DNA of 64,000 nt from Promethearchaeia archaeon (GCA_029856045.1 JAHQWG010000016.1:64001-128000); one strand, 5' to 3'; positions 7,751 to 25,269 are shown, counted from the stretch's first letter. The notes: generated by a model not told the origin, from the letters alone. Program-made: numbers and translations.

Positions 7751-8935
7751 TTATATCCAATCTCCCGTAGTTAATTTTGTTGGTAAATATTTATCGGCTA
7801 AAAAGTTAAATCCATGAGAAGTAAAAGCTTGTATTTCCGCCTTTATTTTTAATTTAAGGGCTAAATTGAGATCTGCTTCCCATTTTTTATTTTTTTTAAC
7901 GAACTTTTCATTTAACATATCCTTTATTCTTTTAATGTCATTTGAATTCATAGGAATTCTAGCTTCTTGAGGTATTTTATATTCATCGAGATCTTTAGTT
8001 AGTACACCAAGGAGTTTAATATTGGGAGTTGCGAGAAACGGTGATTCGTAGCTTAACCTTTTAGAGCCTCTTAAATAAACAGAATGAATATAATGCCCAT
8101 ATGGATCACTATCAACTAATGAAAAGACTGGTAGATTCAATTCTTTACTAAGACGCTTTAAAAACATTCTAACTGCAACATTTCCAACGCCTTGAGCTGT
8201 TATCAGGATACTAGGATATTTTTCCCAGAATTTATGCTTGTTAAGGCGCATCATAGCGGCGTCTTTTTCAATTACTAAAATAAATTCGGCATCTGATTCA
8301 ATAATATCTATTTCATCTAACATAGTAGATACTTGCCAATATCCACTTCCTATCCTTTCAAGGTCAATTATTTCAGTACCATCTCTAATTCTAAGTTTAC
8401 CAACACACGCACCTCTTGGAGCAGCAATAATGTGAGTTGAATTTCTTATAGTATATAACATAGTAGAAATATCTTCTATATTTTTATCACTATTCTTTTG
8501 ATCTTGAAATAATTTCACAGCAGTATAGAAAATTTCACGTTTCGTTGCGTAATCATTTGTTTTAAGGAGTTCGTAGATCTTTTCTAAAACTTTCATTAAT
8601 CTAGTAATATCAACAACGCTAGTAAGACTGTGAAAGTGTTTTTCTACTATCTGCTTTCCTAATAGCAATAAGTCGTTTTCCTCGTCCCATATTATATTTG
8701 ATCCTGACCTCGAGGGCAGTTTAATTGAAGGTCGACCAGTTGTGTAAATTACCTGGACTAATTTATCTACAAGTTCGTTAATTCTTATAATTGTGTTTTT
8801 TACAGGAAGATCTTCGATTTTAATTGTATCTTCTGGAAATTTTATTTCCTTTTTTTGTTGTCCTATTTCTAAATATTGGCTTAATAGATCTTTAGTAGCT
8901 TTTAAATCGTAATTTTCTTTACTCTTTGATGCCAT
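7751..8935 (-). CDS. top6A: DNA topoisomerase VI subunit A (Spo11 family)
   Basis: TKREIFY (catalytic Tyr), VIEKDA, DSDPYG Toprim motif, KAEIQA. Confidence 0.95.
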   Translation of the reverse strand: MASKSKENYDLKATKDLLSQYLEIGQQKKEIKFPEDTIKIEDLPVKNTIIRINELVDKLVQVIYTTGRPSIKLPSRSGSNIIWDEENDLLLLGKQIVEKHFHSLTSVVDITRLMKVLEKIYELLKTNDYATKREIFYTAVKLFQDQKNSDKNIEDISTMLYTIRNSTHIIAAPRGACVGKLRIRDGTEIIDLERIGSGYWQVSTMLDEIDIIESDAEFILVIEKDAAMMRLNKHKFWEKYPSILITAQGVGNVAVRMFLKRLSKELNLPVFSLVDSDPYGHYIHSVYLRGSKRLSYESPFLATPNIKLLGVLTKDLDEYKIPQEARIPMNSNDIKRIKDMLNEKFVKKNKKWEADLNLALKLKIKAEIQAFTSHGFNFLADKYLPTKLTTGDWI

Positions 8936-8949
8936 TATATTTACCTATT

Positions 8950-11900
8950 TTATTTTTTTAACTTCCAATATTTTTTCCCACTTTGAATATTAGCTAAGAC
9001 TTTATTTTCCCGTTCAAGCTGTTTAAGTTTAACTTGTAATAATCGGGCATCCATCATATCACTGATTCCTAATCTAAATATCAAGTGCTTAATTGATTGC
9101 CATTCTTCATTTAATATAGAGAAGATTTTTTCTGTTGTTATTACAGGTAATGATGTTTGTACAGTTTTCTTTATAGGTTTTTTAATAGGTGTTATTTTTG
9201 GGGGAGTTCCAAGTTTTTTAGCCATTGCTATGGGTTGAGAGGTTTTAGGTTTTGAAATTAATGGTTTTGTAATTAGTTTTTTAGGAGTGGAAGTTTTCTT
9301 TGGAATAGTGGTAGGAATTTTTCCTATAGATGTAGGAACCTTAGTTTTTATAGATGGTGTAATTATTTTTGCTGGTTGAGGTTTAGGAGAGATTTGAGGT
9401 GTTTTAATAGCAGGTTTCGGTATTTCCGATATAATTTTTGATGGAATTATTGGAGGTTTTTCAACTTTAGGTACTTCTGGCAATAACACCTTCTCTGGTT
9501 TTTCACCTATAGCACTACGCAATAGATTTTCTAATTCAACCTTTTTCAATTTATTTTTGTATTTATCTTCATTTTTTGCAATATTATAAAGAGAATTAAC
9601 AAAAATTGGAATAAATTTCAAAATTTTTTTCTCTCTATCCATACCTCTACGTATTTTTTCTCTTCTGTTTAAATAACTCTTAATCTGGAGACCAATTTTC
9701 TGTAGAGTTAATTTAATTTCGGTCATTAAAATTTCGTCTTCAGCCAACGCATTTTTTGACTGAGATTTAAACATAAGATGAACAAATGGACCAGAAACAT
9801 TTATTATTAATCTAAGAGGCCCTTTAGGCAAGCCGTTATCATAAACATCCAATCTGTAATTCTCCTTCCACTTGACGGATTGTGCTGCTTTCATTATAGC
9901 ACAATCTGCACTATCTCGCAATTTCGATGTGCGATTAACATATCTTAAAAGAATATCCCTAGGTAATTTTGGACTCTCTAATCCCTCTTTATAAGCTAAT
10001 GCAGCCTCAACCACAAATGCAAGACCTTTTCCACTCGTAGGTGATCTAGTTTCAGCTGCAACAAAATCTTTTGGCATCATTTCATTGATTTCTCTTTGAG
10101 TTTCATTTTCAGTGATACTTTGAAGATCAATTTTGGATTCATCAATATCTTCGAGATTAGTAGAAACGTTTAGATTATATTCGTCAATTAAAATGTTTTT
10201 TAATATAGTTGAGCTTATGGGTATTGCTGTATCGGTCGGGGGAGATAAGTATTTCATAGATTTAAAAGCTAGAAATAACTCATTAAATTGATCACTTGTT
10301 ATTTCAGCTGGTTTAGTTTTAGAAATTAAAACCTTTTTAATTAATTCTAAATTCTTTGTTCGAACTTCAGAAGATTTAAGTTCTGTAATTCCATCTTTAA
10401 TATTTTCAAATTTATCTTCTAATTTCTTTTTAATTTCAACTTTTTGCTTTTCCTTTCTATCAATTTCATTATTAAGGTTATTTATACTTTTTCTTATTAT
10501 ATTTTCTCGCTTCTTAGTAATTTTTTCTTTCTCAAATTCATTTTTCGTAGATTTTATTTTTTTCTGTATTCCTTTAATTTCTTTACATTCTTGATTGAAT
10601 TGTTCGATTAAATCCCAGTATGTTTTTTTTAGGTCCATATTTTCAATTTTATAGGTTATTAACTGGTCTCTTTTTTTTGTAGATTTTCCCCAGACTCTTG
10701 GTTCATAGCGCATTAAATGTATTGGAGAAGTCAATTTTGGGGCTCTATTAATATAAAATTTATCTACTACTAATAGGTTTAATTTCTCCTCCAATTGCTG
10801 TTCAGCTTTATTAGTTATAGTTTTTGCTATTTTTGAGCTCATTCTAACAAAACTGTCCTGTAGGAAGGAAGATATCGTTTTATGTTCAGATTTTGTAATA
10901 TAATCTTGAAAATCTCCAATATTTACAGAAGAGGGATGTGGTAACGCATATTTTGGTTCAGGCGGAAATTTATTAACCCTTCTGGAATAATTAAAGCTTT
11001 CATTATTCGGATCGATATATTTTATTGTAACATGAGGGTTCATAAGTGCTGTTTTTTTAATATATTCATCAACATAACGTGCTATATATTTAATATTCAA
11101 GTAATTCAATTTAATATAGGTTCCGTGAAGAAATGATGTTTCAATTTCTGTATGGGGTATTACATATTTCTTTTCATTTTTTGAAGTCGTAAAAAATTGA
11201 GAGGCTGTTGCATAAACATCAAACTGAGTTTTGGAAACAGCAATTATTGGTTCTCCTGTTGTATTTTGTGAATCACTAAATGCACTAGGAGCTCCAAATC
11301 CTTGACTACCTCTGGTTTGTTTTAATTTTACACTTTTACTTGATGCTAAGTAGATACCGAATTTTCTTAAATCAGAACGATTCATTCCAGTTCCATTATC
11401 AAAGATTTCAAAGGTATATCTCATTATATTCTTTTTTCCTAATTCATCTGTTAAAACAGAAGGAGCTTCAGATTCTGTTAATTTAATAATTATAATTGGC
11501 TCATTATCTACAATATGCTCAAATGGTAAGAGCAACTTCTCCATATCATGAATTAAATTTTTTACTAACTTCTCTTTTTTCTTTTTATCTCTTTTTTCTG
11601 TAGGTTTTTCTTCAGTGAGCATAATTTTTTTTGGACTTGTTTCTGTTTTTAATTCCGCTTCTGAAGTTTTATAACTTTCTCCATTAATTTCCAATATTAG
11701 ATCTTCATTTAATTTTGCTCCAAACTTAATAACATCAAAATCTTTATCTATAGTGAATTTGGTTTTTGATTCATTTTTTAATTGTTCCCATTGGAAAGAT
11801 TCGATCGCATCAATAGCATTATCCATGAATTCTGCTGCATATTGAACATGTTTCCAATGGCCAAACTCAAATCCAACTAATTGAGTTCTCTTTCTCATAA

Positions 11901-11967
11901 ATTCGGCAATAGTGCCTTCCTTTATTTTACCTTCTTCTTCGTCTAAACCTTTTTTTCTTGGGCTAAT
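8950..11967 (-). CDS. top6B: DNA topoisomerase VI subunit B with large insertions and C-terminal extension
   Basis: GHKL motifs EFMDNAIDA, DNGTGM, TRGSQGFG, HGT; transducer motifs VEAALAY, RYVNR, FKSQSKNA. The frame stays open upstream of track start 11898 through EGTIAEF, so the start is uncertain (ATT at 11967 proposed). Confidence 0.9.
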   Translation of the reverse strand: MSPRKKGLDEEEGKIKEGTIAEFMRKRTQLVGFEFGHWKHVQYAAEFMDNAIDAIESFQWEQLKNESKTKFTIDKDFDVIKFGAKLNEDLILEINGESYKTSEAELKTETSPKKIMLTEEKPTEKRDKKKKEKLVKNLIHDMEKLLLPFEHIVDNEPIIIIKLTESEAPSVLTDELGKKNIMRYTFEIFDNGTGMNRSDLRKFGIYLASSKSVKLKQTRGSQGFGAPSAFSDSQNTTGEPIIAVSKTQFDVYATASQFFTTSKNEKKYVIPHTEIETSFLHGTYIKLNYLNIKYIARYVDEYIKKTALMNPHVTIKYIDPNNESFNYSRRVNKFPPEPKYALPHPSSVNIGDFQDYITKSEHKTISSFLQDSFVRMSSKIAKTITNKAEQQLEEKLNLLVVDKFYINRAPKLTSPIHLMRYEPRVWGKSTKKRDQLITYKIENMDLKKTYWDLIEQFNQECKEIKGIQKKIKSTKNEFEKEKITKKRENIIRKSINNLNNEIDRKEKQKVEIKKKLEDKFENIKDGITELKSSEVRTKNLELIKKVLISKTKPAEITSDQFNELFLAFKSMKYLSPPTDTAIPISSTILKNILIDEYNLNVSTNLEDIDESKIDLQSITENETQREINEMMPKDFVAAETRSPTSGKGLAFVVEAALAYKEGLESPKLPRDILLRYVNRTSKLRDSADCAIMKAAQSVKWKENYRLDVYDNGLPKGPLRLIINVSGPFVHLMFKSQSKNALAEDEILMTEIKLTLQKIGLQIKSYLNRREKIRRGMDREKKILKFIPIFVNSLYNIAKNEDKYKNKLKKVELENLLRSAIGEKPEKVLLPEVPKVEKPPIIPSKIISEIPKPAIKTPQISPKPQPAKIITPSIKTKVPTSIGKIPTTIPKKTSTPKKLITKPLISKPKTSQPIAMAKKLGTPPKITPIKKPIKKTVQTSLPVITTEKIFSILNEEWQSIKHLIFRLGISDMMDARLLQVKLKQLERENKVLANIQSGKKYWKLKK

Positions 11968-12252
11968 TTTAACTCTACCACAGAATGGGTGTTTTTTTTA
12001 TATATTTAAATTTAGTTGTATACTTATGATATATCTATATTATTAACTCTATAATTTGTTATCCGTATTAACTATTATATTGATCTACTTTACTACTTCT
12101 TTAATTTCTTTTTAATGTTTCAATTTTAATCAGAAATAATTCTAATATTTAAATCTTTTTCTTTAATTAAATTCAATTAAAAAAATGTGAATAACCCTAT
12201 TTAAAAATAAGGAGTTTATGTATTAACATCCAAAATAAAAGATATTGATTAA

Positions 12253-12753
12253 CTAAGAATTTTTTAATCTAAAGATTTCTAAGGAAACATCTATGATTTT
12301 TGATGCTACATATCGTTTTGTATTTAATGGAACGTGGGTAATATGTTTTTCTTTGTCAATAATAAAAACTTCATTTGTTTTGGTTCCGAACCCTCTTTCA
12401 TCACGTCCTACATCATTGGCGACTATTAAGTCCATATTTGATTTTAAAAGGCGTTTATAGGCTCTTTCGATAAGTTCCTTTTCTAAAACTTTCGTTTCAG
12501 CCTTAAAACCTACAATAAAAACGTTTTTATCCGTTTCTCTTGCTATATCAATAATTTTTGGAGTTAATCTTAATCCCAGTTTTAATTCTTCATTTTTATT
12601 CGAAGAGATTTTTCCTTCTAAGTATTGTTTTGGGGTATAATCACCAATTGCTGCTGCAGAAATGAAAAAATCATATTTATGTTTTGTTAATTCTTCTTTA
12701 GCCATATTTAAAAAATCATTTGTAGAAGTCGCTGGAACCATATCAATATATGC
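12253..12753 (-). pseudogene. coaBC: Displaced 3' portion of coaBC (CoaB/PPC synthetase C-terminal part)
   Basis: Gap-free alignment with the last 166 codons of 19767..21077 (manual count 46 differences, about 72% aa identity). Homology stops at GCATATAT (Ala-Tyr-Ile). Confidence 0.9.
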
Positions 12754-12934
12754 AGATTCGTCGATAAATTTGTTAAAATTGGAATAAACTCAAATTTAAC
12801 TGACAATACGGAACAAAATCGTATGAGAAATAATCTCTTAGATATGAAATTAAATAAAAAAAAAGTTGTTTTAATTTTTTTTGAGTTTTTGAACTTTTCT
12901 TCATTTAAATACTTTCAATATATTGGTAATAAAA

Positions 12935-13195
12935 ATGGCTAAATTAAATTTTAAATTTCTGAACATTATTGATATTTTTATTAATGATTTAGGTACTGCT
13001 TTAGGAGAATTTTGGGAGTTTATGAGATCAGTTCTCTCATTAAGTGGTCTCTTTGGAGCTGTATATTTCCTTATAATGATATTAATTGGAAAACACATAG
13101 GCGTAAAACCCCCTGTAAAAACATTGATAGTTTCAATAACATTACTGACAATTTTTGGGCCAGACTATGGTCTGAGGTATTTTAGAATAATATAG
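12935..13195 (+). CDS. Small two-TM membrane protein, VirB2/TrbC pilin-like topology
   Basis: ATG at 12935; amphipathic N-terminal helix plus two hydrophobic helices; first gene of the island operon. The family call is topology-based only. Confidence 0.55.
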   Translation: MAKLNFKFLNIIDIFINDLGTALGEFWEFMRSVLSLSGLFGAVYFLIMILIGKHIGVKPPVKTLIVSITLLTIFGPDYGLRYFRII

Positions 13196-13242
13196 TAAGA
13201 AGTAGTAAAATGTAAGTTTAAAAATAAAAAGTGGTTTAAAAA

Positions 13243-16200
13243 ATGGTATATATGTTTGAAATGTTCTTCCAGATTTTGCTGCTATTAACATGTGTTTTTG
13301 GAATCTTTGTAATTCTTGGTTTATTATTTTCAAAAAAAAATAGAGGAAAAATTTTTAAAAAAGCATTGTATTTATGCATTCCTCTGTGTAGCCTACTCCT
13401 TTTATTTTGGAGTTTTTTCATACTAGAAACTAACATATATAGATCTTTCGATTCGTTTATTGTTCTTATCTTTGAACTGGAATTTTTAGGCATATTAATT
13501 TGTATTGTTGCATTGTATTTTAATCTTAAAAAACACCCCCGACCCCCAAATCTTATCTATATCCTTGCAGTTTTCATGATTTTTCTCTCTCACATAGTGC
13601 TCGCAGGTCTAATGGCAGATTTATTTCGCGGGACCGTTGTTTCGATCATAATTGCCCTAATTGTATTTTTATATAATGACTTTTTTAGAGGTAAATTTAA
13701 ATCAGTAATACATACTATTCAAATGAATTTAAGAACTCCATTTTTTATTAGGAGAACTAATTTTGAAAGCAAACTGCCTGTAATTAATTCTGAGTATTTA
13801 CCGTGTGATTATGAAATGGATAATGCTAGTGACATAAACGAGAAAGATAATGAAGGAATAAAAACCAAAAAAATGAGGAGAGTAAAATTCTGGCATGCAG
13901 TCGTTGTGATAACCCAACCTCCAATCAATGATCAATTTAATAACAGAAATTGGGAAAAAACATGGCTTAAAAATTTTTTTAATAAGAAATCTTCATATGC
14001 TCTTAGACTTAAAATCCATAATAAGCTTCAATGGGAATTTTTTATGAATGTTCGTAATAGGTTTGGGGCAATAAGAGCAGGTAAAGCAATTCTCACAGAA
14101 TTAAAGCATATTTACCAAGGATTGGATGGAATAATTAAAGTAGTTCCAATCACCTCAGATGATCTTTATCAAAAAAGAATATTTTATGAAATTTTCCTTC
14201 CAAAACCGCCATTTATGAATAAAATTTTATTCATCGAAAAAGCAATAAAAATTTTTGATCAGACTCAGAATGAAATCGAGATATATATCTTATGGAAAGA
14301 AGCTCATCCCTATAAACGCGAAAAAATCCGATTAAAAATTAATGATATGATCTATGAGGACAATTATACTAAAAATAAAATTTTTGAGATGTGGACAGCG
14401 GTTCCGTTTAAGATTAGGATTTTTATTGCATCTAAGGTCCATTCGGAAGACCCTAATGAAATAGAAGAGCAAGAAGCGGACCTTCAAGGGATATTAAAAA
14501 CACTATTAATGGATATTAAAAACGAAAAAAAACGGGCACATTTTAAAAGAACCTCATCTGGAACGTATATCGACATCTTAAAGATAAATCATTATAAAGG
14601 CAGGGTAATCACCCATAAAGTGATAGATTTCGATTTCCCGAAAAATATTCCGTTATTAAAAGCACCAATATTATCAGTTGAAAATATTAAGGATAAATCT
14701 GTTTCAATTAATGATAAAAATCATATTGCCCTAGGATTGCAATACCACGTGGGAGTCTTAACAAAAAATATTGGATATGTACATATAGATGCTTTTGCTT
14801 CAAGCTGCTTTATAGGCGGGCTTTCTGGTACCGGAAAAACTTACTTGATTCTTTGGATTATCAAGGAATTGGCATCTAAACACTCTGAAGTAGGAATTTT
14901 GAATATTAACATTAGTAAAGAAAATCAACAGGAGTTATATGAAAAAGGTTTTAACGTAATTAAGTACGGTGATCCGGAATTTAAAGTTCCTTATTATGTT
15001 AAAGGGTCAAATCCAGATCAAACGCGTCAAGAAACATCATCAATTTTAGCAGCAAGTTTAGGATTAAATAATGTAGTTATTAATCTGCTTTTAAATGTAA
15101 TGCAACAATATGATGAGCAATTAGGAGATCAACCCGAATCACTGATGGTATTATTTAATACACTCATAATTTTCATGGAAAAAAACCCATATCACGAGAA
15201 ACTTCAAACAAATCTATTACGAGCAATTAAAAATCGAATAATGCCGCTCTTAGCCGGTAAAACATTTCATGATACAGTAATATACACCCAAAAGATACCA
15301 AAATGGTTTGTTGATTGGCAAAATGGAGAAAATGTTTTCCTTGATTTAAGCATGTGTAATGAATTTCAGAAACGATTATTAATCATGCTAGTCCTTCAAA
15401 TGGTTAGAACTTTAACTCCAAAAGGAGAAGCAGGTAAATTAACAAATCTAATCATAATTGATGAGTCTAAAAACATAGTTCGAAAACCAACTAACAATAA
15501 CCCATATGATTATGATTTCATTTCAAAGGAACAATTAGAGGAGATATTTATCAAATTAGTTTCAGAATTTCGAGCATTGGGAGTAGGATTTCTTTTTGCA
15601 GACCAATATCCTTCGTTATTATTTCCTTGTGTAGTAAAAGTAAGCCTTCAAATAATCTTTCGCGTTAAATACCCTTGCAATACTATCTTCACCGAAAATT
15701 ATGGCGATAGAGATTTATTACCAAATTTAAAAAACCGTGTAGCGTTGGTAATGAATGGTATTGAGAGTGAAAATTTTCTAATACAAACGCCGGACTATGC
15801 ACCTCCTAAGCAACCACAAGTTAATTTAACTTCTTCACAAGCTTTTCAGTCAAAACCTGAAAAGAAAAAACAAGAAAGACTTACTTTACTCGAAAAAATA
15901 TTTGAAAACCCGAATTGTCTAGTTCTAATGGACATAAAAGTTGATATAAAATTAAATAATTACTTCAAAGAGAAAATTAAGAAACTTGAAAAGAAAAAAA
16001 AAATAAAAGAACTTTATTGCCTAAAATATGCCATTTTTTATTATCAACTTAGAAAAAAAGTGGAACGAGCGCTTAGTCCAAATATTGAAAGGAATATTGA
16101 TCTCTATGGTTATATTTATTCTTTAACACAATTTTTATATCAAAGAGGATGGGAATTAGACCTTAAAATATATGATGATTTCATGTCATTTGGTTCCTTG

Positions 16201-16341
16201 CATGATTATTTCTTATTAAATAAGCCGGGAATAGAACATGAGATTAAGCGGTTAAATCACTCCTTTATGGCATTATATAACGAAATTTGTCCTATAATAA
16301 AACCGTTTGAACAGGATCAAAAAGATAAAGCGGTGATTTAA
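13243..16341 (+). CDS. Membrane-anchored FtsK/HerA/VirB4-superfamily ATPase
   Basis: About 5 N-terminal TM helices, Walker A GLSGTGKT, Walker B LIIIDES, and the FtsK-HerA arginine-finger/Gln motif EFRALGVGFLFADQYP. Confidence 0.85.
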   Translation: MVYMFEMFFQILLLLTCVFGIFVILGLLFSKKNRGKIFKKALYLCIPLCSLLLLFWSFFILETNIYRSFDSFIVLIFELEFLGILICIVALYFNLKKHPRPPNLIYILAVFMIFLSHIVLAGLMADLFRGTVVSIIIALIVFLYNDFFRGKFKSVIHTIQMNLRTPFFIRRTNFESKLPVINSEYLPCDYEMDNASDINEKDNEGIKTKKMRRVKFWHAVVVITQPPINDQFNNRNWEKTWLKNFFNKKSSYALRLKIHNKLQWEFFMNVRNRFGAIRAGKAILTELKHIYQGLDGIIKVVPITSDDLYQKRIFYEIFLPKPPFMNKILFIEKAIKIFDQTQNEIEIYILWKEAHPYKREKIRLKINDMIYEDNYTKNKIFEMWTAVPFKIRIFIASKVHSEDPNEIEEQEADLQGILKTLLMDIKNEKKRAHFKRTSSGTYIDILKINHYKGRVITHKVIDFDFPKNIPLLKAPILSVENIKDKSVSINDKNHIALGLQYHVGVLTKNIGYVHIDAFASSCFIGGLSGTGKTYLILWIIKELASKHSEVGILNINISKENQQELYEKGFNVIKYGDPEFKVPYYVKGSNPDQTRQETSSILAASLGLNNVVINLLLNVMQQYDEQLGDQPESLMVLFNTLIIFMEKNPYHEKLQTNLLRAIKNRIMPLLAGKTFHDTVIYTQKIPKWFVDWQNGENVFLDLSMCNEFQKRLLIMLVLQMVRTLTPKGEAGKLTNLIIIDESKNIVRKPTNNNPYDYDFISKEQLEEIFIKLVSEFRALGVGFLFADQYPSLLFPCVVKVSLQIIFRVKYPCNTIFTENYGDRDLLPNLKNRVALVMNGIESENFLIQTPDYAPPKQPQVNLTSSQAFQSKPEKKKQERLTLLEKIFENPNCLVLMDIKVDIKLNNYFKEKIKKLEKKKKIKELYCLKYAIFYYQLRKKVERALSPNIERNIDLYGYIYSLTQFLYQRGWELDLKIYDDFMSFGSLHDYFLLNKPGIEHEIKRLNHSFMALYNEICPIIKPFEQDQKDKAVI

Positions 16342-16342
16342 A

Positions 16343-19300
16343 ATGGTTGAAGGCGAAAGTGGTGGAGATGCAAGTCGAGACACAAGCGGAGATACAAGTG
16401 GAGATGCAGGAGAAGATACAGAAGGAGATAGTGAAGTAGATTATGAGGAAGGTCGCACAAAGGAAGAAGTAGAAGGTTATGATTCTCAGCAAGAATCTGA
16501 AGAAACAGAGAGTGTTCACAGTGAAGCTGAAGAATCTCCTACAATCGAAGATGAATTAAAAGAGATAGAAGAAGAACCTATTCAAGATGAGCTTCCAATG
16601 AGTGAAAATGATATAGAAAATCCAGATGATTTACTATCTGATGATGATCTTCCCATGAGAGGAGAAGATTTAAAGGATTCTGAAGAGAATTTAGATCTCC
16701 AAGAACTTCCCCAAACATTTGATGAAGTAGAAAAAGCAATTAAGGAAAGTGAGGAGCGACTTGACCTTACTGAGGTCCCCCAAACCTTCGATGAGGTTGA
16801 AAAAGCACTTAAGGAAAGTAAGGAACGACTTGACCTTTCAGAGATTCCTCAAACCTTCGATGAGGTTGAAAAAGCACTTAAGGAGAGTGAAGAGCGACTT
16901 GACCTTACTGAGGTCCCCCAAACATTCGATGAGGTTGAAAAAGCACTTAAAGAGAGTGAAGAGCGACTTAACCTTTCTGAAGTTCCTAAATCAATAGATG
17001 AATTAAACGCGTTAGAAGATTACCAAAACAAGAATATTGTTAAAAATTCAATTCGCAACATAATGCGAATGAGTCCAGAACAGCGGGAAAGTCATGGATT
17101 GCCTAGAGAATATACAAACCATGAGTTGGATATATTTTTTGCGCAAATTGATACTACTGCGACTTTAGATAGCAATAATGCCAAACCAAGTGAAGTTAGT
17201 AATCCAGAAGGCTCAGGACCATTTTCTCGTAATGGTTCATTTGATGGAAAATCTGAGGGTTTAAAAAAGGAAAGTGTAAATAAAATTATAGATAAAGAAA
17301 TGACATCAGATTCAGATATTAAACAAAAAGAAACATCATCTACTCTCAATAAAGATATAGAAAAGAGTTCTATTGATAATTATAAAAGCAAACTTGCTAA
17401 TATTGATTGGAAAAGACAATATCTACAAACAAAAAAAGGCATGGAGGAAACAAGTAATGAAAAATCGGAATTTGATATAAATAATTTAGAGAAAATTGAA
17501 AACACATTAGACTCGAAAAAAATAGAATTAGCTACTATTAATGACAAAATAAAAAAAGATAATAAAGATTTGAAAGAATGGGAAAAACTAAAAAAAGAAA
17601 AAAAAGAAGAAGGAAAATCAAAGAAAAAAATAGAGGAATTAAATAAAGAAAACTTAAAAAATAAATCTGAATCGGAAATTGAACAATTAAACATTATTTC
17701 TGGAAAAAATAGAAATGACACTTCTGAAGATTTATTAAAGAATGATTTGTCAATTTTTGCAACAAAAAGATCTTGGAAAGATTGGACATACGAAATGTTA
17801 TTGGAAGAATTTACAAAAATATGTTATAAACTAGGAGTTAAAGATGGTTTTGCACCAACTAAAACCCAGATTGAAAATATCGAATATCGCTATATTATGA
17901 GTGGAATAACATCTTTACGGAAAATGTATAAGAAAAAAGGAATAGATAAAAAAATTAATTATTCGACATTAGTAAAGGACGCAGGATTTAATATAAAACA
18001 TGATATATATAAATACTCGAATATTAGAACTTTAAAAGAAGCGGCGGAGAAATTAATGTCCATAAAAGATAAATTAGGAATTTTACGGGAACGACCACCA
18101 ACAAGAGCCGAATTAGAAGATGGAGGATACTCTGGTTTTTTAAATATGTTTCGCAATAAAAAATTTACATATAACGATGCTGTGAGAGCAGCAGGTTTAA
18201 TTCCAAATTACGACTCTCAAAAATGGATGTGGCTGGATAAAGGTGATACTCTATATTTAGCGAGTAATTATTTTAAAAAGATATATGAGCAAAAATTGAA
18301 GAATTTACTAGATTTAGAGAACAATAAAGCTCCTAGAAGTGGCGATTTGATTGAATACGGGCCAAAAGGATTTTATTACGCTGTTGTTGATCGAGGATTC
18401 ACTTATAATGAGTTGGTTAGAGCAGCTAGCTTATATCCAAATGTAGAACCTTTTAAATGGGGTAATACTTTCAATATTGTTGATGCTAAGGATTATTTAA
18501 TGAAACTAATTAATTCAGGTGCTTTAGATCATTTGGAATTATCAGAGGGAGAATCTCCTACCATTCAACAGCTTAAAAATAGTAATAATGATTTTGTTCA
18601 AAAATTTTCGAAGCAAGGAATAAAATACAACGATATATTACGATTAACGGGATTACAACCTAATCATGAGCCTTATAAATATTACAATTATAAGATTTCT
18701 GATTTCATAGGTCTTTTTAAAGAGATAATGGATACTAATGAAATTAAAGATTTAAATTTAGGTGTTAGAGAAGCACCTACATTAAGACAATTATATGAGT
18801 TGGGATTTGGTTTTTTTCCTAGTGCGATACAAAAGAAGGAGATTAATTATAACGAGATATTAAGAAAATCTGGATATGACATTAATCATGAAATTCGTAA
18901 ATATGAGGGATATTCAAATAATGATTTCAAACAAGAGGTAAAGAAAATAATTCTTGGCTCTTTTCTTAGAGATGAATTAAATCTTACAACTAAGGAAGCC
19001 CCTACTATAAAACAACTAATAAATCTGGGCTATGGAGATATAATTCATCAACTGATTGATCGAAAAATAAGTTATAACGATGTTGTTAAAGATGCTGATT
19101 TAGTCCCTAATATGTTCCAGACTAGTCAAGAGATAGGGAAAATACTTCACCCAATCCTAGAATACTTTTTTATGATCCATACAATTTCAAAAAATATTAA
19201 TTCTTATTTCGAAATAAGACCTAGTATTTTAGATAATCGGAAGCAATGCGACATTACGATACTATATCCTGAAACTTATTACATTGCCCCTTCAAAAAAT

Positions 19301-19732
19301 ATTAAAATGATAAATATCGACTATACTATGTCTTCAGATAGCGAGTTACTTCTTGACAAATGTTTTCGAGGTTATCAAGGAAAACATAAAAAATTAATTA
19401 TAGTACCTTTATACATGCCGAAAAATTATATTAAGATGACTAAATCTAAGCTACACTCTTTTAGCATACCTTTTATGGAAAAAGTTGATATCTTAACTTC
19501 TCAAGAATTTCTTAATCTTTTCTCATTTCCTGATAATATTAGAGATAAATTTTTCTATTACTTAAGATTAGCAAAGGATTCGTTTGATGACGAAGCATTA
19601 TACAATCAACTTGAGAGAGATTCCCTTAAGGCCAAAAATATTTTAAAAACTAAATTTAAAGCAAGACAACAAAACGGGTTTGAAAAATTTCTTAGAGAAA
19701 GAGGAGATTACTCTCTTTTAAAACAAGGATAA
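16343..19732 (+). CDS. Acidic, tandem-repeat protein with six ~70-78 aa helical repeats and a putative C-terminal PD-(D/E)XK-like nuclease domain
   Basis: Repeat consensus (A/P/S)P(T/R)..(Q/E/D)L...G......YN..(V/L)(R/K)..G..PN; C-terminal E...FE...CD...NIDYT. Starts 1 nt after the ATPase stop. Confidence 0.65.
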   Translation: MVEGESGGDASRDTSGDTSGDAGEDTEGDSEVDYEEGRTKEEVEGYDSQQESEETESVHSEAEESPTIEDELKEIEEEPIQDELPMSENDIENPDDLLSDDDLPMRGEDLKDSEENLDLQELPQTFDEVEKAIKESEERLDLTEVPQTFDEVEKALKESKERLDLSEIPQTFDEVEKALKESEERLDLTEVPQTFDEVEKALKESEERLNLSEVPKSIDELNALEDYQNKNIVKNSIRNIMRMSPEQRESHGLPREYTNHELDIFFAQIDTTATLDSNNAKPSEVSNPEGSGPFSRNGSFDGKSEGLKKESVNKIIDKEMTSDSDIKQKETSSTLNKDIEKSSIDNYKSKLANIDWKRQYLQTKKGMEETSNEKSEFDINNLEKIENTLDSKKIELATINDKIKKDNKDLKEWEKLKKEKKEEGKSKKKIEELNKENLKNKSESEIEQLNIISGKNRNDTSEDLLKNDLSIFATKRSWKDWTYEMLLEEFTKICYKLGVKDGFAPTKTQIENIEYRYIMSGITSLRKMYKKKGIDKKINYSTLVKDAGFNIKHDIYKYSNIRTLKEAAEKLMSIKDKLGILRERPPTRAELEDGGYSGFLNMFRNKKFTYNDAVRAAGLIPNYDSQKWMWLDKGDTLYLASNYFKKIYEQKLKNLLDLENNKAPRSGDLIEYGPKGFYYAVVDRGFTYNELVRAASLYPNVEPFKWGNTFNIVDAKDYLMKLINSGALDHLELSEGESPTIQQLKNSNNDFVQKFSKQGIKYNDILRLTGLQPNHEPYKYYNYKISDFIGLFKEIMDTNEIKDLNLGVREAPTLRQLYELGFGFFPSAIQKKEINYNEILRKSGYDINHEIRKYEGYSNNDFKQEVKKIILGSFLRDELNLTTKEAPTIKQLINLGYGDIIHQLIDRKISYNDVVKDADLVPNMFQTSQEIGKILHPILEYFFMIHTISKNINSYFEIRPSILDNRKQCDITILYPETYYIAPSKNIKMINIDYTMSSDSELLLDKCFRGYQGKHKKLIIVPLYMPKNYIKMTKSKLHSFSIPFMEKVDILTSQEFLNLFSFPDNIRDKFFYYLRLAKDSFDDEALYNQLERDSLKAKNILKTKFKARQQNGFEKFLRERGDYSLLKQG
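16682..17015 (+). repeat. 69-bp (23-aa) coding tandem repeat, about 5 copies
   Basis: Units start at 16682, 16751, 16820, 16889 and 16958 (last one partial); consensus EERLDLTEVPQTFDEVEKALKES. Confidence 0.9.
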
Positions 19733-19766
19733 AGTAGTATTATTTTATATTTTTTAAAAATTTTAA

Positions 19767-21077
19767 TTAATAATTTTTTATTCTGAAGTTTTCAATAGCA
19801 ACGTCAATTATCTTCGATGCTACATATCGTTTCGTATTTAATTCAACATGTGTAATATTTTTTTCTTTATCAATAATATAAACTTCATTCGTCTTGGACA
19901 CAAAACCTCTTTCCTTAAGTCCTACATCATTTGCTACAATTAAATCGACATCAGATTTTATTAAACGCTGATAAGCTCTTTCGATGAGTTCTTCTTTTGA
20001 AACCTTAGTTTCAGCCTTAAAAGCTACAATAAAAACATTTTTATCTGTTTCTCTTGCTATATCAATGATTTTAGGAGTTAACTTTAAATTAAGAATAAGT
20101 TCTTTACGCTCATCAGTCGATATCTTTCCTTTAAGACGTCGAATCGGTGTATAATCACTAATAGCTGCAGCCGATATGAAAAAATCATAACTATTTTTCG
20201 ACAATTCTTCTTTTACCACATTCAAGAAATCTTCAGTTGTGATAACAGATCTCGTTTCTATATATGCCGGAACCTTAGTTGTACCTTGACCATATACCAA
20301 TAAAACATCTCCTCCTCTAACCTTTACTTCTTTAGCTAGTTCAATTCCTTGACGACCTGAAGACCAATTCGTTAAATATCTCACCGTATCAAGCGGTTCT
20401 TTACTAGGACCAGCTGTTATAAGAAATTTTTTTCCTTCTAATTCTTTTACCGGGTGGACTAAATCAATCACTCTTTGGATGATATCATCAACTCTTGCAA
20501 TTTTAGCCTTACCTTCAGAGATTCTTGGACCTAAGATATCAACCCCTAGTCGTTTTAATTTAAGAATATTTTTCTCTAAAATTGGGTGATTGAACATACT
20601 CTCATGCATTGCGGGAACAATAATTATAGGAATCTGAGTTCCAAAAGCTGTGGTCACGACTGTAGTAACAGCTGTATCGTCAATTCCAGTAGCTATCTTT
20701 GAAATCGTATTTGCTGTCGCAGGACATACTAAAATAAGATCTGCTTTTCCTAACTTTTTTGGTCGTTCTCCTGCTAAATAGATATGTTCAACATTGCCTG
20801 TTAATTTTGTTATTGCTGGATTTCCGGTAGCCCAGTGCATTAGATCGGGACCAAGTAATTTTGTGGCAGCTCTAGTCATAACACATACCACCTCAGCACC
20901 AAGTCGCATTAATTCCCGGGAAATTATTGGAGCTTGAATTATCGCAACACTACCAGTGACACACAAGCAGATTGTTTTTCCTCTTAAAATTGTTCCCTTA
21001 GATTCTAAAATTTCCTTAGAGGGATGATCTTTATTCATATTAATCAAACTCTTAAATATGTACTTTTTTAAATTCAA
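19767..21077 (-). CDS. coaBC: Bifunctional phosphopantothenoylcysteine decarboxylase/synthetase
   Basis: CVTGSVA, PATANTISK, PAMH, ITAGP, LTNWSSGRQG, FKAET, IVANDV. The true start is probably ATG at 21038. Confidence 0.95.
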   Translation of the reverse strand: MNLKKYIFKSLINMNKDHPSKEILESKGTILRGKTICLCVTGSVAIIQAPIISRELMRLGAEVVCVMTRAATKLLGPDLMHWATGNPAITKLTGNVEHIYLAGERPKKLGKADLILVCPATANTISKIATGIDDTAVTTVVTTAFGTQIPIIIVPAMHESMFNHPILEKNILKLKRLGVDILGPRISEGKAKIARVDDIIQRVIDLVHPVKELEGKKFLITAGPSKEPLDTVRYLTNWSSGRQGIELAKEVKVRGGDVLLVYGQGTTKVPAYIETRSVITTEDFLNVVKEELSKNSYDFFISAAAISDYTPIRRLKGKISTDERKELILNLKLTPKIIDIARETDKNVFIVAFKAETKVSKEELIERAYQRLIKSDVDLIVANDVGLKERGFVSKTNEVYIIDKEKNITHVELNTKRYVASKIIDVAIENFRIKNY

Positions 21078-21325
21078 AATAAAAGTAATGATTATTTCAT
21101 TAAAATTTTTTTAAAAAAAAAACATAATGATAATTTAACTGATTTTTAATTTTAATTAAATCATCTTGTTATTGGATATTTCGAATTATCTGGTATAAAT
21201 TCATATCTTTACTATTTATAAACAATTGTTTAATTTAAAAAAGTATTATAATCTCTTAATCGAGATATTTTTATTAAAATAAGATAAAACTTAGGAAAAT
21301 CCATGTGGTGTAAAAAAAAATTCCA

Positions 21326-23809
21326 TTGGATATAATAGAAAATCAGAAAATTAGAATTCTTCTCGATATAAACGATGAAATTTCTTCTCAAAAAATTGAA
21401 ATAAGAGATGGAAATAAATATATTCCTGTTATCGGGAGTTCAGAATCGTTGGGTACTTTACTCTTCATATTTAAAAATTGCTTATATTCTAAGCCGTTGA
21501 TACTCAAAAAAAAGTCTGAAAGTAATTTAATCTTAAATTATGAAGATTCTATATTATCAATCCTTTTAGAAATTACAATTGAAAATGATGATTTAATTCA
21601 TTTTAAATATACAATAAAATTTAATCATAAATTAAAATTAACAAAACTTATTTCAAATTATGATATATTATTAGGAAATAATCCAGATTATACTTGGGTT
21701 CCTCATATTCGTCCAAAAGAAAATTATGTTATGGCAGATCATATTTTTCGCTCTCCTGCTGTAATATATAATAAAGGGAAATATTCTTTTTCATTAATTC
21801 CAGATTTAGATATCCTTGCTAAAAATAGACATTTCCAGACTATATTAGATTTAAATTTAAAGAATAAAGAATATACGGACTTTCCTCAACTATATTTTGG
21901 CTTCGGAAATTATAAAGCCGTTGAACATATTCTATTTCGTCACAATCCAAAGAAACATATGAAAATAAAAGCGGATTCAAATTTAATTTTTGGATACTAT
22001 GTGAAATTATTTAATGACTCACCTATTAATGATGTTTTAGCATATATTAATTCATTTTTATGGGAGAAATATGGAAAAAAAAGATTATATGCTGATTGTA
22101 AACCACAAGTATTATCATATGACACCTTTGTTGAGGAAGGTTTTAAAGCAATTTTTAAACGCCATAATTATTGGGGAAATTTTCAAATTGATAATATAGA
22201 ATGCGGAGGTGTTTTTCTTAGATCTTGGATGGGCTCCAAAAAAAAGCCACTTAAATATATAAAACCAGAAAAATTTGAAAAATATAAAAAAACAAGTTCA
22301 ATAGAATTATCTGGTCAAAGTAAACTTATCAATAGAATAATTTCAAGGTTTTCAAATAGTCCCTTTTGGATTAAAAGATTTGATAATTTCACGCGTCATC
22401 ATGCAATTATTACAAGAAACGCAGAGATACGAAATAATGCTTGGTTTTTAAATGTTCGGACTGGTTATGGTTTTAGATATTTTGCGAAATTATGGAATGA
22501 TCAATTTCTTAAAGATAAGGGAAATAGAACATTAAATACGGTATTAAATCTTCCTCGAATTAGAGGAGTATTTCCAAGTGTTATTTTACCAGAGAAAGAA
22601 AACGCAGTAAATTTTTCTACAATAAATGGGTTAAAAGCCTTTATCTTCACTGATGATTTTCACATAGTTGATATTTGTCTAGCTATTTACTGGGCAATCA
22701 AATTTTTTGAAGATTTTGGTGAAGTTAATGGAATTAAAGAAAAATGCAAGGAACTTTTTGATCTAATAGAAGAAGTTCAATTAGATAATGGTGCAATCCC
22801 CACATACATAGGTTTCAAAGAGGATAATAAGACACCGATTATTAGAGATACATTAATAAATTCGGCAAGTACAGGGGCACCATTGATGTTTCTAACAGAA
22901 TATTATAAAATTTCTAGAGATAAAAGAATCATTCCAATTGCTGAAAAATGTGCAAAATATATTCAAACTGAAATTATTCCTCAAGATAAATGGCATGATT
23001 ATGAACCTTTCTTTAGTTGCACACATTTACCTTTTGATATATATGATGATTTTACAAAATCTCATGTCATAAATACTTTGTCAATATATTGGAGCGCAGA
23101 AGGATTAAAAGAATTATATAAAATCACTAAGAACAAGGATTATTTAATATTAGGAGAAAGAGTTTTATCCGTTCTATCATTATTTCAACAAGTATGGGAC
23201 ATTCCTTACATCAGTTATAATACATTTGGAGGTTTTGGAGTGCAAAATGCAGATGCTGAATTGAGTGATGCGAGACAAGGTCTCTTTGTCCGGACGTATA
23301 TGGAGTATTATTTAGAAACAGGAAAAAAAGAATATATGGAAAGAGGAATCGCGACATTAAGAGCTTGTTTTGCTTTAATGCTTTTAAGAGAACTTAAAGA
23401 ACAATGTCCAGGTAACTTAAAAGGAATCGAAACGCTTGATGGTATTGATAGAGGATGTATCTGTGAAAATTATGGCCATTCAGGAAATGATCTACGAATT
23501 CCTGGATATATAATGTTTGATTGGGGAGTAGGTACATCTGCTTCAGCTTCTGCATATATAAAAAAACACTTTGGTGATTTATTCATTGATTTTAAAGAAA
23601 ATATTGCATGGGGGATTGATGGATTAATCGTGAGAACATTTGAATACAAGGATGATAAAATTTTCATAAAATTTGATAAAATTGAAGATAAAAAAGATAT
23701 TCTTGTAAAAGCGAGGGATCCTCCAAAAGAAAAACTAGAAATTTTTATAAATGACAAATCACTTGGGTTAAGAAGTAAAAAAGATTTAGAAGAAGGGTTC
23801 ATATTTTAA
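21326..23809 (+). CDS. Large hypothetical protein, probable six-hairpin (alpha/alpha)-barrel glycosidase-like
   Basis: Recurrent helix-pair motifs (EYYKISRDKRII, ELYKITKNKDYL, EYYLETGKKEYMERG) typical of alpha/alpha toroids. Confidence 0.5.
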   Translation: MDIIENQKIRILLDINDEISSQKIEIRDGNKYIPVIGSSESLGTLLFIFKNCLYSKPLILKKKSESNLILNYEDSILSILLEITIENDDLIHFKYTIKFNHKLKLTKLISNYDILLGNNPDYTWVPHIRPKENYVMADHIFRSPAVIYNKGKYSFSLIPDLDILAKNRHFQTILDLNLKNKEYTDFPQLYFGFGNYKAVEHILFRHNPKKHMKIKADSNLIFGYYVKLFNDSPINDVLAYINSFLWEKYGKKRLYADCKPQVLSYDTFVEEGFKAIFKRHNYWGNFQIDNIECGGVFLRSWMGSKKKPLKYIKPEKFEKYKKTSSIELSGQSKLINRIISRFSNSPFWIKRFDNFTRHHAIITRNAEIRNNAWFLNVRTGYGFRYFAKLWNDQFLKDKGNRTLNTVLNLPRIRGVFPSVILPEKENAVNFSTINGLKAFIFTDDFHIVDICLAIYWAIKFFEDFGEVNGIKEKCKELFDLIEEVQLDNGAIPTYIGFKEDNKTPIIRDTLINSASTGAPLMFLTEYYKISRDKRIIPIAEKCAKYIQTEIIPQDKWHDYEPFFSCTHLPFDIYDDFTKSHVINTLSIYWSAEGLKELYKITKNKDYLILGERVLSVLSLFQQVWDIPYISYNTFGGFGVQNADAELSDARQGLFVRTYMEYYLETGKKEYMERGIATLRACFALMLLRELKEQCPGNLKGIETLDGIDRGCICENYGHSGNDLRIPGYIMFDWGVGTSASASAYIKKHFGDLFIDFKENIAWGIDGLIVRTFEYKDDKIFIKFDKIEDKKDILVKARDPPKEKLEIFINDKSLGLRSKKDLEEGFIF

Positions 23810-23871
23810 TAAAATTTAAATAATTCATCAATTAATTGTAATATATTTCTTATAATCTTTAATGGATTTTT

Positions 23872-25053
23872 ATGTTTGATGTAGTAATTTCGGGAGCTGG
23901 TCCATCTGGTTCTAAATGTGCAGAAATTTTAGCTAAAAATGGTTTTAAGGTTGCATTAATTGAAAAAGATACTAATTGGCGAAAACCTTGTGGAGGTGGT
24001 GTAAGTGCGAGGATTTTTAAATATTTTCCTCAGTTGAGAAAATACAATATACCAAAAAAGAAAGGTATTGTTATGTTTTCCTCAAAATATTATAAATTGG
24101 AAAATAGATGGGAAGATCTTAAAGATTACTCAATTGTAATGGATCGATTGGAATTGGATAATTTAATCAGAGATGTTGCAGTTGATGCGGGAGTAGAACT
24201 TTTTGATAAGAATATTTCATTTGATTATGTAATTAAAAATCAAAAAAAAATTGGAATTAGGACAAAGACACCTTCAGGTGTTAATGAATATTTAGGGAAA
24301 ATAATTATTGTGGCCGATGGAATGAGTTCTAAATTGGCAATAAAATCCGGATTGAGAGAACGATGGAAAACTGAACAACTTGGTATAGCAAAATGTGCTA
24401 TTTTGGAAGGGGAGAATTCTTTAGATTCAAGTTCTATTTATATTTTCTTTCGACCTTATAAAGGATACGGATGGATATTTCCTATAGATGAACACCGTTT
24501 TAATATTGGATGTGGAACATTTGAAGAAGATAATTTAAGCTATAATTTAAATGAAATTTACAAGGAGTTTATAAATAATCCAAATATTAAAAATCTTTTA
24601 CCAAAATCGAATTATAAACAAATATGGATGGGATCTTATCCCTTACCAAGTCTAGGAGTATTAGAAAAAAGTTTATTTGGAGAAAATATAATGCTTATTG
24701 GAGATGCTGCAGGATTTGTATCCCCCATAAGTGGGGAAGGAATACATGCAAGTATAGTATCAGGAGATATAGCTGCTGAAACTGCAATTTATGCTTTAGA
24801 AAAAGAAGATGTGTCAGAAAAGACGTTAAAAAAATATAAATTCCATCCAAAAATTAAAAAAATAATTCGAAATTTCAAATTAAAACATTCAATGGCAAAT
24901 TTCTTTTTTGAAAATAGGGGTCAAAATCTTAATACCGTATTTAAAATAGCTGAGAAAGAGATATCATTTAAACAAGAAGTTATAAATATATTTTTATACA
25001 ACACTACTCCTCCAAAGGAATTCTTTCAAAGAATAAAAAACACGATTTCTTAA
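23872..25053 (+). CDS. Geranylgeranyl reductase family flavoprotein
   Basis: GAGPSG, KPCGGG, ADG, GYGWIFP, GDAAG..SPISGEGI. Confidence 0.9.
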   Translation: MFDVVISGAGPSGSKCAEILAKNGFKVALIEKDTNWRKPCGGGVSARIFKYFPQLRKYNIPKKKGIVMFSSKYYKLENRWEDLKDYSIVMDRLELDNLIRDVAVDAGVELFDKNISFDYVIKNQKKIGIRTKTPSGVNEYLGKIIIVADGMSSKLAIKSGLRERWKTEQLGIAKCAILEGENSLDSSSIYIFFRPYKGYGWIFPIDEHRFNIGCGTFEEDNLSYNLNEIYKEFINNPNIKNLLPKSNYKQIWMGSYPLPSLGVLEKSLFGENIMLIGDAAGFVSPISGEGIHASIVSGDIAAETAIYALEKEDVSEKTLKKYKFHPKIKKIIRNFKLKHSMANFFFENRGQNLNTVFKIAEKEISFKQEVINIFLYNTTPPKEFFQRIKNTIS

Positions 25054-25088
25054 AAATTAATTATAAGTTATTGATAAAAAGAATTTGA

Positions 25089-25111
25089 ATGGACTTGACG
25101 GGATTCGAACC
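25089..25111 (-). repeat. Degenerate copy of tRNA-Ala 3' end (att-like site 2)
   Basis: atggacttgacgggattcgaacc vs atggacctgacgggaatcgaacc at 30063-30085 (2 mismatches). Confidence 0.8.
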
Positions 25112-25114
25112 AAA

Positions 25115-25135
25115 GCTATGTCGTCACGGCATAGT
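25115..25135. other. 21-bp imperfect palindrome next to att-like site 2
   Basis: GCTATGTCGT-C-ACGGCATAGT (10-1-10). Confidence 0.7.
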
Positions 25136-25269
25136 ATTTTTCTTCAAATGAGAAAAATTCATATATAAAAGCTAATTCAAAAGTAATAGAAATAATCAAC
25201 CGAAATAAGGAAAACTCATTTCTTAATATCAGTTAAAATTTCATAGAATAAAAAAAATCTCAAAATAGT

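Follow-up and report, generated by a model that had tools for sequence, protein, structure and literature searches.

We examined a window of 64,000 nucleotides (nt) from a Promethearchaeia archaeon (GCA_029856045.1, JAHQWG010000016.1:64001-128000), which lies on contig C27 of a 3.34-Mb genome assembled in 55 contigs; coordinates below are those of the whole window. At the gene coaBC, the window carries an insert of ~7.5 kb with three co-oriented open reading frames (ORFs) on the plus strand. They encode a small membrane protein of 86-90 amino acids (aa) (12935-13195, in an ORF that runs from a TTG at 12923), an ATPase of 1032 aa (13243-16341) and a long protein of 1129 aa (16343-19732), and are separated by gaps of 47 nt and 1 nt. 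On one side of them lies an orphan native coaBC 3' end on the minus strand (12253-12756, ~codons 272-436, with an intact reading frame of 162 aa at 12253-12741), and on the other a full working coaBC, also on the minus strand (19767-21077), with the Pfam domains Flavoprotein and DFP. The orphan matches only the C-terminal part of DFP and is 75% identical to coaBC residues 280-435 over 156 aa (E 2e-80); the two coaBC 3' copies thus form a direct repeat with a spacing of 7514 nt. An earlier sequence-only reading of this DNA had described three tightly spaced genes between two coaBC 3' ends and had noted the absence of an integrase, relaxase or replication gene. Both descriptions hold, as searches of the three genes against Pfam, NCBIfam, PHROGs and PADLOC recovered no integrase, relaxase or replication protein. 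There is likewise no tRNA gene within 8000-26000. In the same-genus genomes G001, G002 and G004 the site is empty, with one uninterrupted coaBC directly adjoining a TopoVIB-like gene; because of this uninterrupted junction, the insertion is not a chance arrangement. Alignment of the coaBC copies and a motif search revealed an 11-nt core, TC[A/T]ATATATGC, at the junction of orphan and insert (12743-12753) and again at the equivalent position inside the working coaBC (20257-20267).

The two coaBC 3' ends differ in their history. Relative to G001, the working gene shows 92-98% nt identity up to window position 20407 (codon ~224) and 55-85% thereafter. The orphan shows 92-97% nt identity to same-genus coaBC from 12756 downward and is colinear with the empty sites, and its native homology stops within 3 nt of the 11-nt core. 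Divergence at synonymous sites (dS) and dN/dS, both calculated against G001, follow the same division: they are 0.13 and 0.09 for codons 1-225 of the working gene, 1.9 and 0.15 for codons 225-280, and 1.15 and 0.12 for codons 280-436, and they are 0.13 and 0.35 for the orphan. Measured against same-genus genes, the 3' part as a whole (the last ~212 codons) has dS 1.1-1.9 and dN/dS 0.12-0.22, with dN/dS summarized as 0.13. A tree of the 5' halves places the working coaBC inside its own genus clade. In the tree of the 3' halves, it is the orphan that groups with the genus (support 0.99), and the 3' end of the working gene branches outside, yet nearer to this clade than any other sampled genus. 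Therefore, the working coaBC is a chimera, composed of a native 5' part (20407-21077, minus strand, ~codons 1-224; 96% nt identity and dS 0.13 to G001) and a foreign but functionally constrained 3' part (19767-20406, minus strand, ~codons 225-436), the latter delimited by the drop in identity, by dS and by the 3'-half tree. By these comparisons, the foreign part came from an unsampled relative and has evolved as a functional gene; the native end was displaced. The start of the foreign tract lies 140 nt upstream of the core, so that ~50 native codons have been overwritten. In sequence terms this looks like a co-conversion tract left by repair, and not like a conservative crossover at an attachment (att) core.

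Other coaBC irregularities were encountered among the related genomes. In G020, which belongs to another genus, coaBC is split over two contig ends, the end of C11 (L057) and the start of C48 (L056), which overlap by residues 268-290. The split falls in the same region as the junction described here, and a similar insertion may have broken the assembly there; neither an ATPase nor a nuclease homolog was found in G020. A degraded coaBC 3' fragment at 9506-9718 of L117 (G018:C331) lies far from the coaBC of that genome, has no nuclease or ATPase alongside, and may be the relic of an old event.

The decisive finding comes from comparison with related loci, which ties the nuclease half of the long protein to its target gene and not to the ATPase. 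At L086, the gene order is TopoVIB-like gene, coaBC orphan (codons 371-435), 230-aa gene, 606-aa gene and a convergent coaBC; the 606-aa product and residues 532-1127 of the long protein share 58% identity, and there is no ATPase. Because this ATPase-free element sits at the coaBC 3' end together with an orphan, the motor is not needed for insertion. At L046, the protein has 943 aa and an N-terminus of unrelated sequence; it shares 49% identity with residues 558-1127, again without an ATPase, and its gene is convergent on coaBC and ends 18 nt from the coaBC stop, with no orphan. A more distant member shows the same orphan anatomy at another target: in L087 (GCA_013375355.1, 2083-6604), an 893-aa protein is encoded between a 159-aa orphan and a 341-aa gene, the orphan being 76% identical to the last 160 residues of the 341-aa product. 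The nuclease family is multi-copy and, among 40 relatives, was found only in the genome's own taxonomic family. In L088 (633-5589), the gene immediately upstream of a further, 1051-aa member encodes a group II intron reverse transcriptase/maturase.

The long protein consists of several parts. Its N-terminal arm (residues 1-200, 16343-16942, plus strand) is acidic, with a net charge of -58, and probably disordered. In and just after the arm, at 16633-17046 (~residues 98-235), are tandem repeats of 69 nt (23 aa), for which TRF reported 3.9 copies with 87% matches and a repeat search found 5 copies at 69-nt spacing. Next comes a stretch of mixed composition, in part rich in Lys/Glu (~residues 200-490). 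Self-alignment then resolves six units of ~71-73 aa each (17816-19141, plus strand) that resemble the HNH repeat and may form a DNA-reading array; unit 2 matches PF18780 (HNH_repeat, homing endonuclease associated repeat) with E 0.013 and 16.2 bits, below the cut-off of 26. Homologs of the long protein give faint PF26683 matches in the repeat region and weak PF18780 matches (P0011: PF18780, E 0.006). The PF26683 matches brought a tyrosine recombinase into consideration, which was ruled out by the C-terminal fold.

This C-terminal domain (residues 900-1129, 19040-19729, plus strand) is the putative catalytic domain of a homing endonuclease. Its family comprises 102 cluster representatives in 1.8 billion proteins, in nearly all of which the domain is C-terminal, behind N-terminal parts of varying length. 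Positions G932, H936, D970 and Y1011 are invariant in the alignment, and E940, E957, D993 and Q1012 are nearly so. The AlphaFold2 (AF2) model of the domain (pLDDT 91.8) has a helix and four strands in alpha-beta-beta-beta-alpha-beta order, with D970 on strand 2 and D993 on strand 3. Its best fold matches, obtained with Foldseek and an exhaustive aligner, are without exception PD-(D/E)xK enzymes, at modest scores: Can2 (probability 1.0) and AF1548 (Z 6.8, 134 aligned residues), followed by the R2 endonuclease domain, CCGG-family restriction enzymes, Bse634I, BglII and EcoRII. The model thus points to a PD-(D/E)xK fold, and "nuclease" applies at the level of the fold only. Of the repeat-array nuclease proposed by the sequence-only reading, both the repeat units and a restriction-endonuclease-like fold in the last ~230 aa are therefore present, with nuclease activity suggested by the fold alone.

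The ATPase has five N-terminal transmembrane (TM) helices (residues 7-148), followed by an alpha/beta N-domain, a motor domain (~residues 481-856) and a helical tail that is poorly modelled. Walker A (G526-x-x-G-x-GK532) and Walker B (D740-E741) are invariant in 20 homologs. A profile of 20 ATPase sequences matches HerA in the PDB (4d2i, E 4e-8), and an Atlas feature search leads to DUF87/HerA_C clusters. In an AF2 monomer model of residues 200-1032 (pLDDT 79.5), the motor domain gave VIA Z scores over ~330 residues of 29.1 with DndH-C, 26.8 with VirB4, ~25 with HerA, 23 with TrwB and 18.5 with FtsK. The best full-length Foldseek matches are TrwK/VirB4 (5e-16), and TrwK aligns over both domains, although with a root-mean-square deviation of 16.5 A. 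By profile and by model, the protein belongs to the FtsK/HerA/VirB4 superfamily of P-loop translocases, within which VirB4, HerA and DndH are not separable here; the label HerA/VirB4 ATPase given earlier is accordingly apt. Relatedness of its TM domain to the zincin family encoded upstream in other loci (see below) was considered and rejected, as the two proved unrelated on comparison. The small protein has no family match in Pfam, NCBIfam, PHROGs or PADLOC. In a hydropathy scan, its hydrophobic helices at residues 36-52 and 64-80 flank a basic loop, and on inspection the first of them, starting at residue 36, lies behind an amphipathic stretch. In archaeal type IV pilins, the class III signal peptide places a short charged N-terminus immediately ahead of the hydrophobic helix; the earlier label, pilin-like, is a putative one. 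This two-helix topology fits VirB2/CedA1, as regards topology only.

ATPase homologs are patchily distributed, occurring in 17 of 40 relatives with up to six matches per genome. In ~20 Promethearchaeota loci the ATPase gene is followed, in the same orientation, by the gene of a large partner protein (450-2437 aa), and the family gene order runs from small TM proteins through a polytopic HExxH membrane protein and the ATPase, sometimes with a 100-155-aa protein, to the large partner. The HExxH motif is conserved in the upstream polytopic protein in 7 of the 8 members found. A net charge of -28 or lower in the first 150 residues was found in 11 out of 18 ATPase partners, compared with none out of 61 other large proteins of the same loci, and the acidic N-termini hold short tandem repeats that are unrelated to one another. 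The C-terminal tips include LAGLIDADG, Hint plus LAGLIDADG, treble-clef zinc fingers, TFIIB/helix-turn-helix (HTH) and SegE-like GIY-YIG. In L013 (12765-14891) and L031 (8658-11324), where the partner has a Hint intein-splicing region with LAGLIDADG, the latter reaches nearly to the C-terminus and leaves hardly any C-extein. The two closest relatives of the present cassette, L028 and L029, encode the small protein upstream of the ATPase (65-79% identity) and, besides the ATPase itself (77-79%), an HExxH membrane protein of 401 aa and a partner; one of the two is not beside coaBC. Far from failing to co-occur, which would have spoken against a three-gene system, the unit of small protein, ATPase and acidic arm recurs in these two assemblies (65-79% identity). 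The sequence-only reading had asked whether such a triad is conserved with variable C-terminal domains; its conservation extends to these two assemblies, and variable C-terminal domains are indeed borne by the large downstream partners in ~20 loci. The present locus has the ATPase-partner pair, the acidic arm and the small TM protein, without the HExxH membrane protein. Because the L028 and L029 partners share only the acidic repeat arm with the long protein (67% identity over residues 111-309), the latter is a mosaic of a motor-partner arm and a coaBC-specific nuclease. A hidden Markov model (HMM) of the nuclease domain found no match among the other ATPase partners. In the literature searched, we found no description or publication of this cassette. 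A distant TM-anchored paralog of the ATPase (27% identity) occurs in L014 (G014:C16, 9365-15578), where a T2SSE/VirB11-like ATPase of 730 aa and several small TM proteins come after it, in what may be a secretion- or pilus-like set.

One cassette of the family is itself inserted in the end of a gene. In G001:C7 (L018, 9570-15276), a 4.9-kb motor cassette interrupts the 3' end of a ydjM-like gene and leaves a 58-aa orphan; its ATPase is broken by an internal stop and is accompanied by a 193-aa gene and by a SegE-like GIY-YIG protein of 632 aa that has NUMOD-like repeats. The empty ydjM-like site is found in the window's own genome (G000:C21) and in G004 (G004:C10). Comparison of these sites therefore indicates that motor cassettes as such move by this insertion route, with different nuclease types and targets. 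In a self-comparison of ~25 ATPase loci and ~20 short nuclease loci, many of them too short to judge, flanking target duplication was seen only in L018, L086 and L087.

An arrangement of this kind is known from the WHO elements of Torulaspora/Lachancea yeasts, in which a housekeeping gene has a free-standing endonuclease gene next to its 3' end (Coughlan et al. 2020, PMC7282813). During a homing event, the 3' end of the target gene is swapped for a resistant copy, and the old end is pushed aside as a fragment that serves as homology arm (PMC7282813). Allele-specific cleavage and gene conversion, with the site at FBA1, have been shown experimentally, and the target evolves as a chimeric gene whose 5' and 3' trees are discordant (PMC7282813). 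All four defining features of WHO elements are found here: a nuclease lineage at the 3' end of one gene (L086 and L046 at coaBC, with the same anatomy elsewhere in L087), a native end displaced to the element's far side, a putatively resistant substitute end, and empty sites in relatives; the discordant half-gene trees of coaBC agree with them. Because all four are present, we favor, with a probability of roughly 60%, the reading that 12757-20406 is a homing element without an integrase, which came into coaBC by cut-and-repair in the manner of WHO elements, with a linked motor module. By analogy, ~residues 490-1129 of the long protein would be its homing endonuclease. According to this model, the six repeat modules and the PD-(D/E)xK-fold domain would recognize an uninterrupted coaBC and cut it near the core, and the break would be repaired from the element-bearing copy, with the coaBC 5' part and the orphan as homology arms. 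The substituted 3' end, with its sharp divergence directly behind the core, would render the occupied allele uncuttable while preserving coenzyme A (CoA) synthesis. The insertion without an integrase, to which the sequence-only reading drew attention, is thus real, and a nuclease half that behaves as a putative homing endonuclease would account for it. The same reading had remarked that no immunity gene follows the nuclease; none was detected, and by the same analogy the substituted coaBC 3' end may itself be the "immunity".

Several points weigh against a homing element at coaBC. Homing requires donor and recipient DNA in one cell, and we know of no mating route for these archaea. The fold matches of the nuclease domain are weak, with no Z above 6.8 and no Foldseek E below 0.008, and the canonical Lys two residues after D993 is missing, its position being variable; from the alignment, a K/H in the helix after strand 3 could replace it. 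The orphan has 162 codons here compared with ~65 in L086 and none in L046, so that a common cut position is not established. The long protein is tied to the other partners only by position, acidic arm and one repeat match, and it is not matched by an HMM built on the core that is conserved among the other large partners. The membrane zincin gene of the closest relatives is missing, and the motor module may thus be incomplete. Most other ATPase loci have no flanking target duplication in the DNA examined. Finally, the related genomes are kin, so that counts among them are not independent.

What the motor contributes is more speculative. In the favored model, the small two-TM protein and the HerA/VirB4-like ATPase would be the motor module of an Asgard-specific cassette family with an exchangeable nuclease tip; here the tip would be the coaBC-specific nuclease, and the module would be dispensable for insertion. 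The strict pairing with acidic-armed partners and the membrane components suggest that the motor acts on its partner, or on DNA, at the membrane. Our best guess, held with low confidence, is that it helps to move DNA and/or the nuclease between cells by way of the acidic arm, since a homing element in a clonal host would need to spread in this way. The motor, predicted to be hexameric, would then engage the acidic, DNA-like arm at the membrane. Other options are assistance in end processing, as in HerA-NurA, or defence. It would be tempting to go further and imagine a "kill-or-convert" scheme, in which the motor threads the DNA-mimicking arm and delivers the nuclease, with or without the element DNA, into neighboring cells, where an unprotected coaBC, an essential gene, is cut. 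Cells that are cut would either die or copy in the element, whereas carriers would be immune by their re-spelled target. We consider this unlikely; if true, it would amount to a contact-dependent gene drive in the closest prokaryotic relatives of eukaryotes and to a new use of a HerA/VirB4-type motor.

The homing interpretation has to be weighed against other explanations of the same genes. The nearest structures of the ATPase are DndH-C (Z 29.1) and the HerAs of defence systems (Z ~25), and the nuclease domain resembles the effector domains of Can2, Cap4 and NucC; the insert could thus be a HerA-nuclease defence module (cf. Sir2-HerA, DUF4297-HerA and DndFGH) that arrived in coaBC as cargo by some other route, its membrane ATPase activating or loading the PD-(D/E)xK protein against invading DNA. 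PADLOC 2.0 gave mad8 (1.6e-9) and weak HerA matches on the ATPase, but these cover the P-loop only, nothing was returned for the other genes, and MADS or any other full PADLOC system was ruled out. Moreover, the tips of the partners are of homing type (LAGLIDADG, SegE-like GIY-YIG, HNH-repeat arrays) with long sequence-reading arrays, the same nuclease lineage occurs alone at the coaBC site with the same orphan anatomy, and the geometry between nuclease and target gene is conserved, of which a defence effector would have no need. We therefore hold a defence module to be unlikely. It is a little less probable still that the long protein is a nuclease toxin whose acidic N-terminus is threaded by the ATPase toward competitors, as the EssC of type VII secretion systems (T7SS) does with LXG toxins. 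Such an export system would suit a membrane-anchored ATPase, acidic disordered repeat arms specific to its partners, variable C-terminal domains and a 1-nt gap between the two genes that suggests coupled translation. However, we detected neither a signal peptide nor an immunity gene or toxin family, the tips belong to homing types that act on specific sequences and not to unspecific toxin nucleases, and export by HerA-like motors is without precedent.

Descent from a conjugative or Ced/Ted-like DNA-transfer element, with a VirB2-like pilin, a VirB4-like ATPase, a DNA-processing protein and a lost integrase, appears improbable to us, even though VirB4 is the best full-length Foldseek match and a good fold match of the ATPase, the small two-TM hairpin shares the topology of CedA1/VirB2 (PMC9905601), and a distant paralog is accompanied by a T2SSE/VirB11-like ATPase at L014. 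VirB4 is indistinguishable from HerA or DndH in this comparison, Pfam and NCBIfam identify no VirB6, type IV coupling protein (T4CP), relaxase or VirB11 among the insert genes, and the cassette is not a decay product, because it is equally minimal in ~20 loci. A peptide-pattern scan of IMG/VR contigs returned no relatives, a search of PLSDB plasmids returned one weak partial match to the P-loop, and PHROGs gave nothing useful; an origin from a provirus or plasmid was ruled out on these grounds. In all, we found no indication for the toxin, defence or conjugative-remnant readings raised from the sequence alone. Least probable of all, and in our view very improbable, is a cryptic site-specific recombinase, by which the long protein would integrate at an att core without a double-strand break and its repair. 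The core does stand at both junction-equivalent positions, and PF26683, seen faintly in homologs, is the N-terminal domain of haloarchaeal tyrosine recombinases. However, that signal is confined to the repeat region, no recombinase catalytic domain in the insert was matched by Pfam or NCBIfam, the C-terminal domain has a restriction-endonuclease fold and neither a tyrosine nor a serine recombinase fold, and a foreign tract that starts well upstream of the core is unlike a conservative crossover at it.

If the element moves by homing, its closest counterpart, the WHO element, still differs from it in several respects. WHO proteins are intein-derived LAGLIDADG enzymes with a zinc finger in a sexual eukaryote, whereas here a PD-(D/E)xK-fold domain stands behind an HNH-repeat-like array in an archaeon, and the putative nuclease has an acidic arm fused to it and a membrane ATPase linked with it. 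In fungal mitochondria, mobile ORFs (Allomyces atp6; Glomus atp6/atp9) likewise combine an endonuclease ORF with a foreign C-terminal coding part and leave the native end as a downstream pseudogene; unlike the present element, they are organellar, use GIY-YIG or LAGLIDADG enzymes and have no motor module. Phage T4 seg and mob genes home as free-standing genes, with neither intron nor intein, and co-convert flanking markers, and I-Ssp6803I is a PD-(D/E)xK homing endonuclease, so that this fold, though rare among homing endonucleases, is an accepted one; in these cases, however, gene ends are mostly not replaced, and neither a repeat array nor an ATPase partner is present. As regards the motor, HerA-nuclease pairs (HerA-NurA in repair; Sir2-HerA, DUF4297-HerA and DndH/DptH in defence) also have a HerA-type hexameric motor adjoining a nuclease gene, and HerA-type systems are the closest solved structures to the ATPase (Z 24-29). 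Their motors are soluble, whereas the ATPase here is membrane-anchored, accompanied by small TM proteins (in relatives also by the membrane zincin), and paired with an acidic-armed partner that has a homing-type tip. To our knowledge, gene-end-replacing homing has been demonstrated only in yeasts and inferred in fungal mitochondria. VirB4/CedB of systems for type IV secretion (T4SS) and of archaeal Ced/Ted DNA import (PMC9905601) is, as here, a membrane-associated ATPase beside a small two-helix protein, but no VirB6/CedA-like channel protein was recognized in the insert. Aloposons of Heimdallarchaeum are likewise Asgard mobile elements with very large proteins and an ATPase (PMC8813620); they were ruled out, as they have a MinD/ParA ATPase and twin proteins of 3,000-6,000 aa and integrate at tRNA genes.

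If homing of this kind does take place in Asgard archaea, integrase-free, nuclease-driven swapping of gene ends would shape essential genes in the lineage nearest to eukaryotes, and would do so by means of a previously uncharacterised family of repeat-array/PD-(D/E)xK enzymes. This would provide a concrete route by which housekeeping genes become mosaic. The repeat array that precedes the nuclease is a candidate for a modular scaffold that reads DNA. Furthermore, the constant association of nucleases of homing type with an acidic arm and a HerA/VirB4-like motor in the membrane may reveal how such elements move between archaeal cells.

Two neighbors of the locus deserve mention. The 982-aa TopoVIB-like protein beyond the orphan (8950-11898, minus strand) has the transducer domain of Topo VI B, matches GHKL ATPases weakly and is much longer than the usual Topo VI B; it is also the neighbor of coaBC in G004, G018, G020 and L086. 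On the 5' side of coaBC lies a second, unrelated indel (21123-23661) with an ORF of 827 aa on the plus strand (21326-23809). G004 and G002 lack this gene and have its flanks directly joined, and G001 seems to keep at least its start. Its product has no Pfam match, and an Atlas feature search leads to bacterial hypothetical proteins, some of them with GH127/GH76-like domains.

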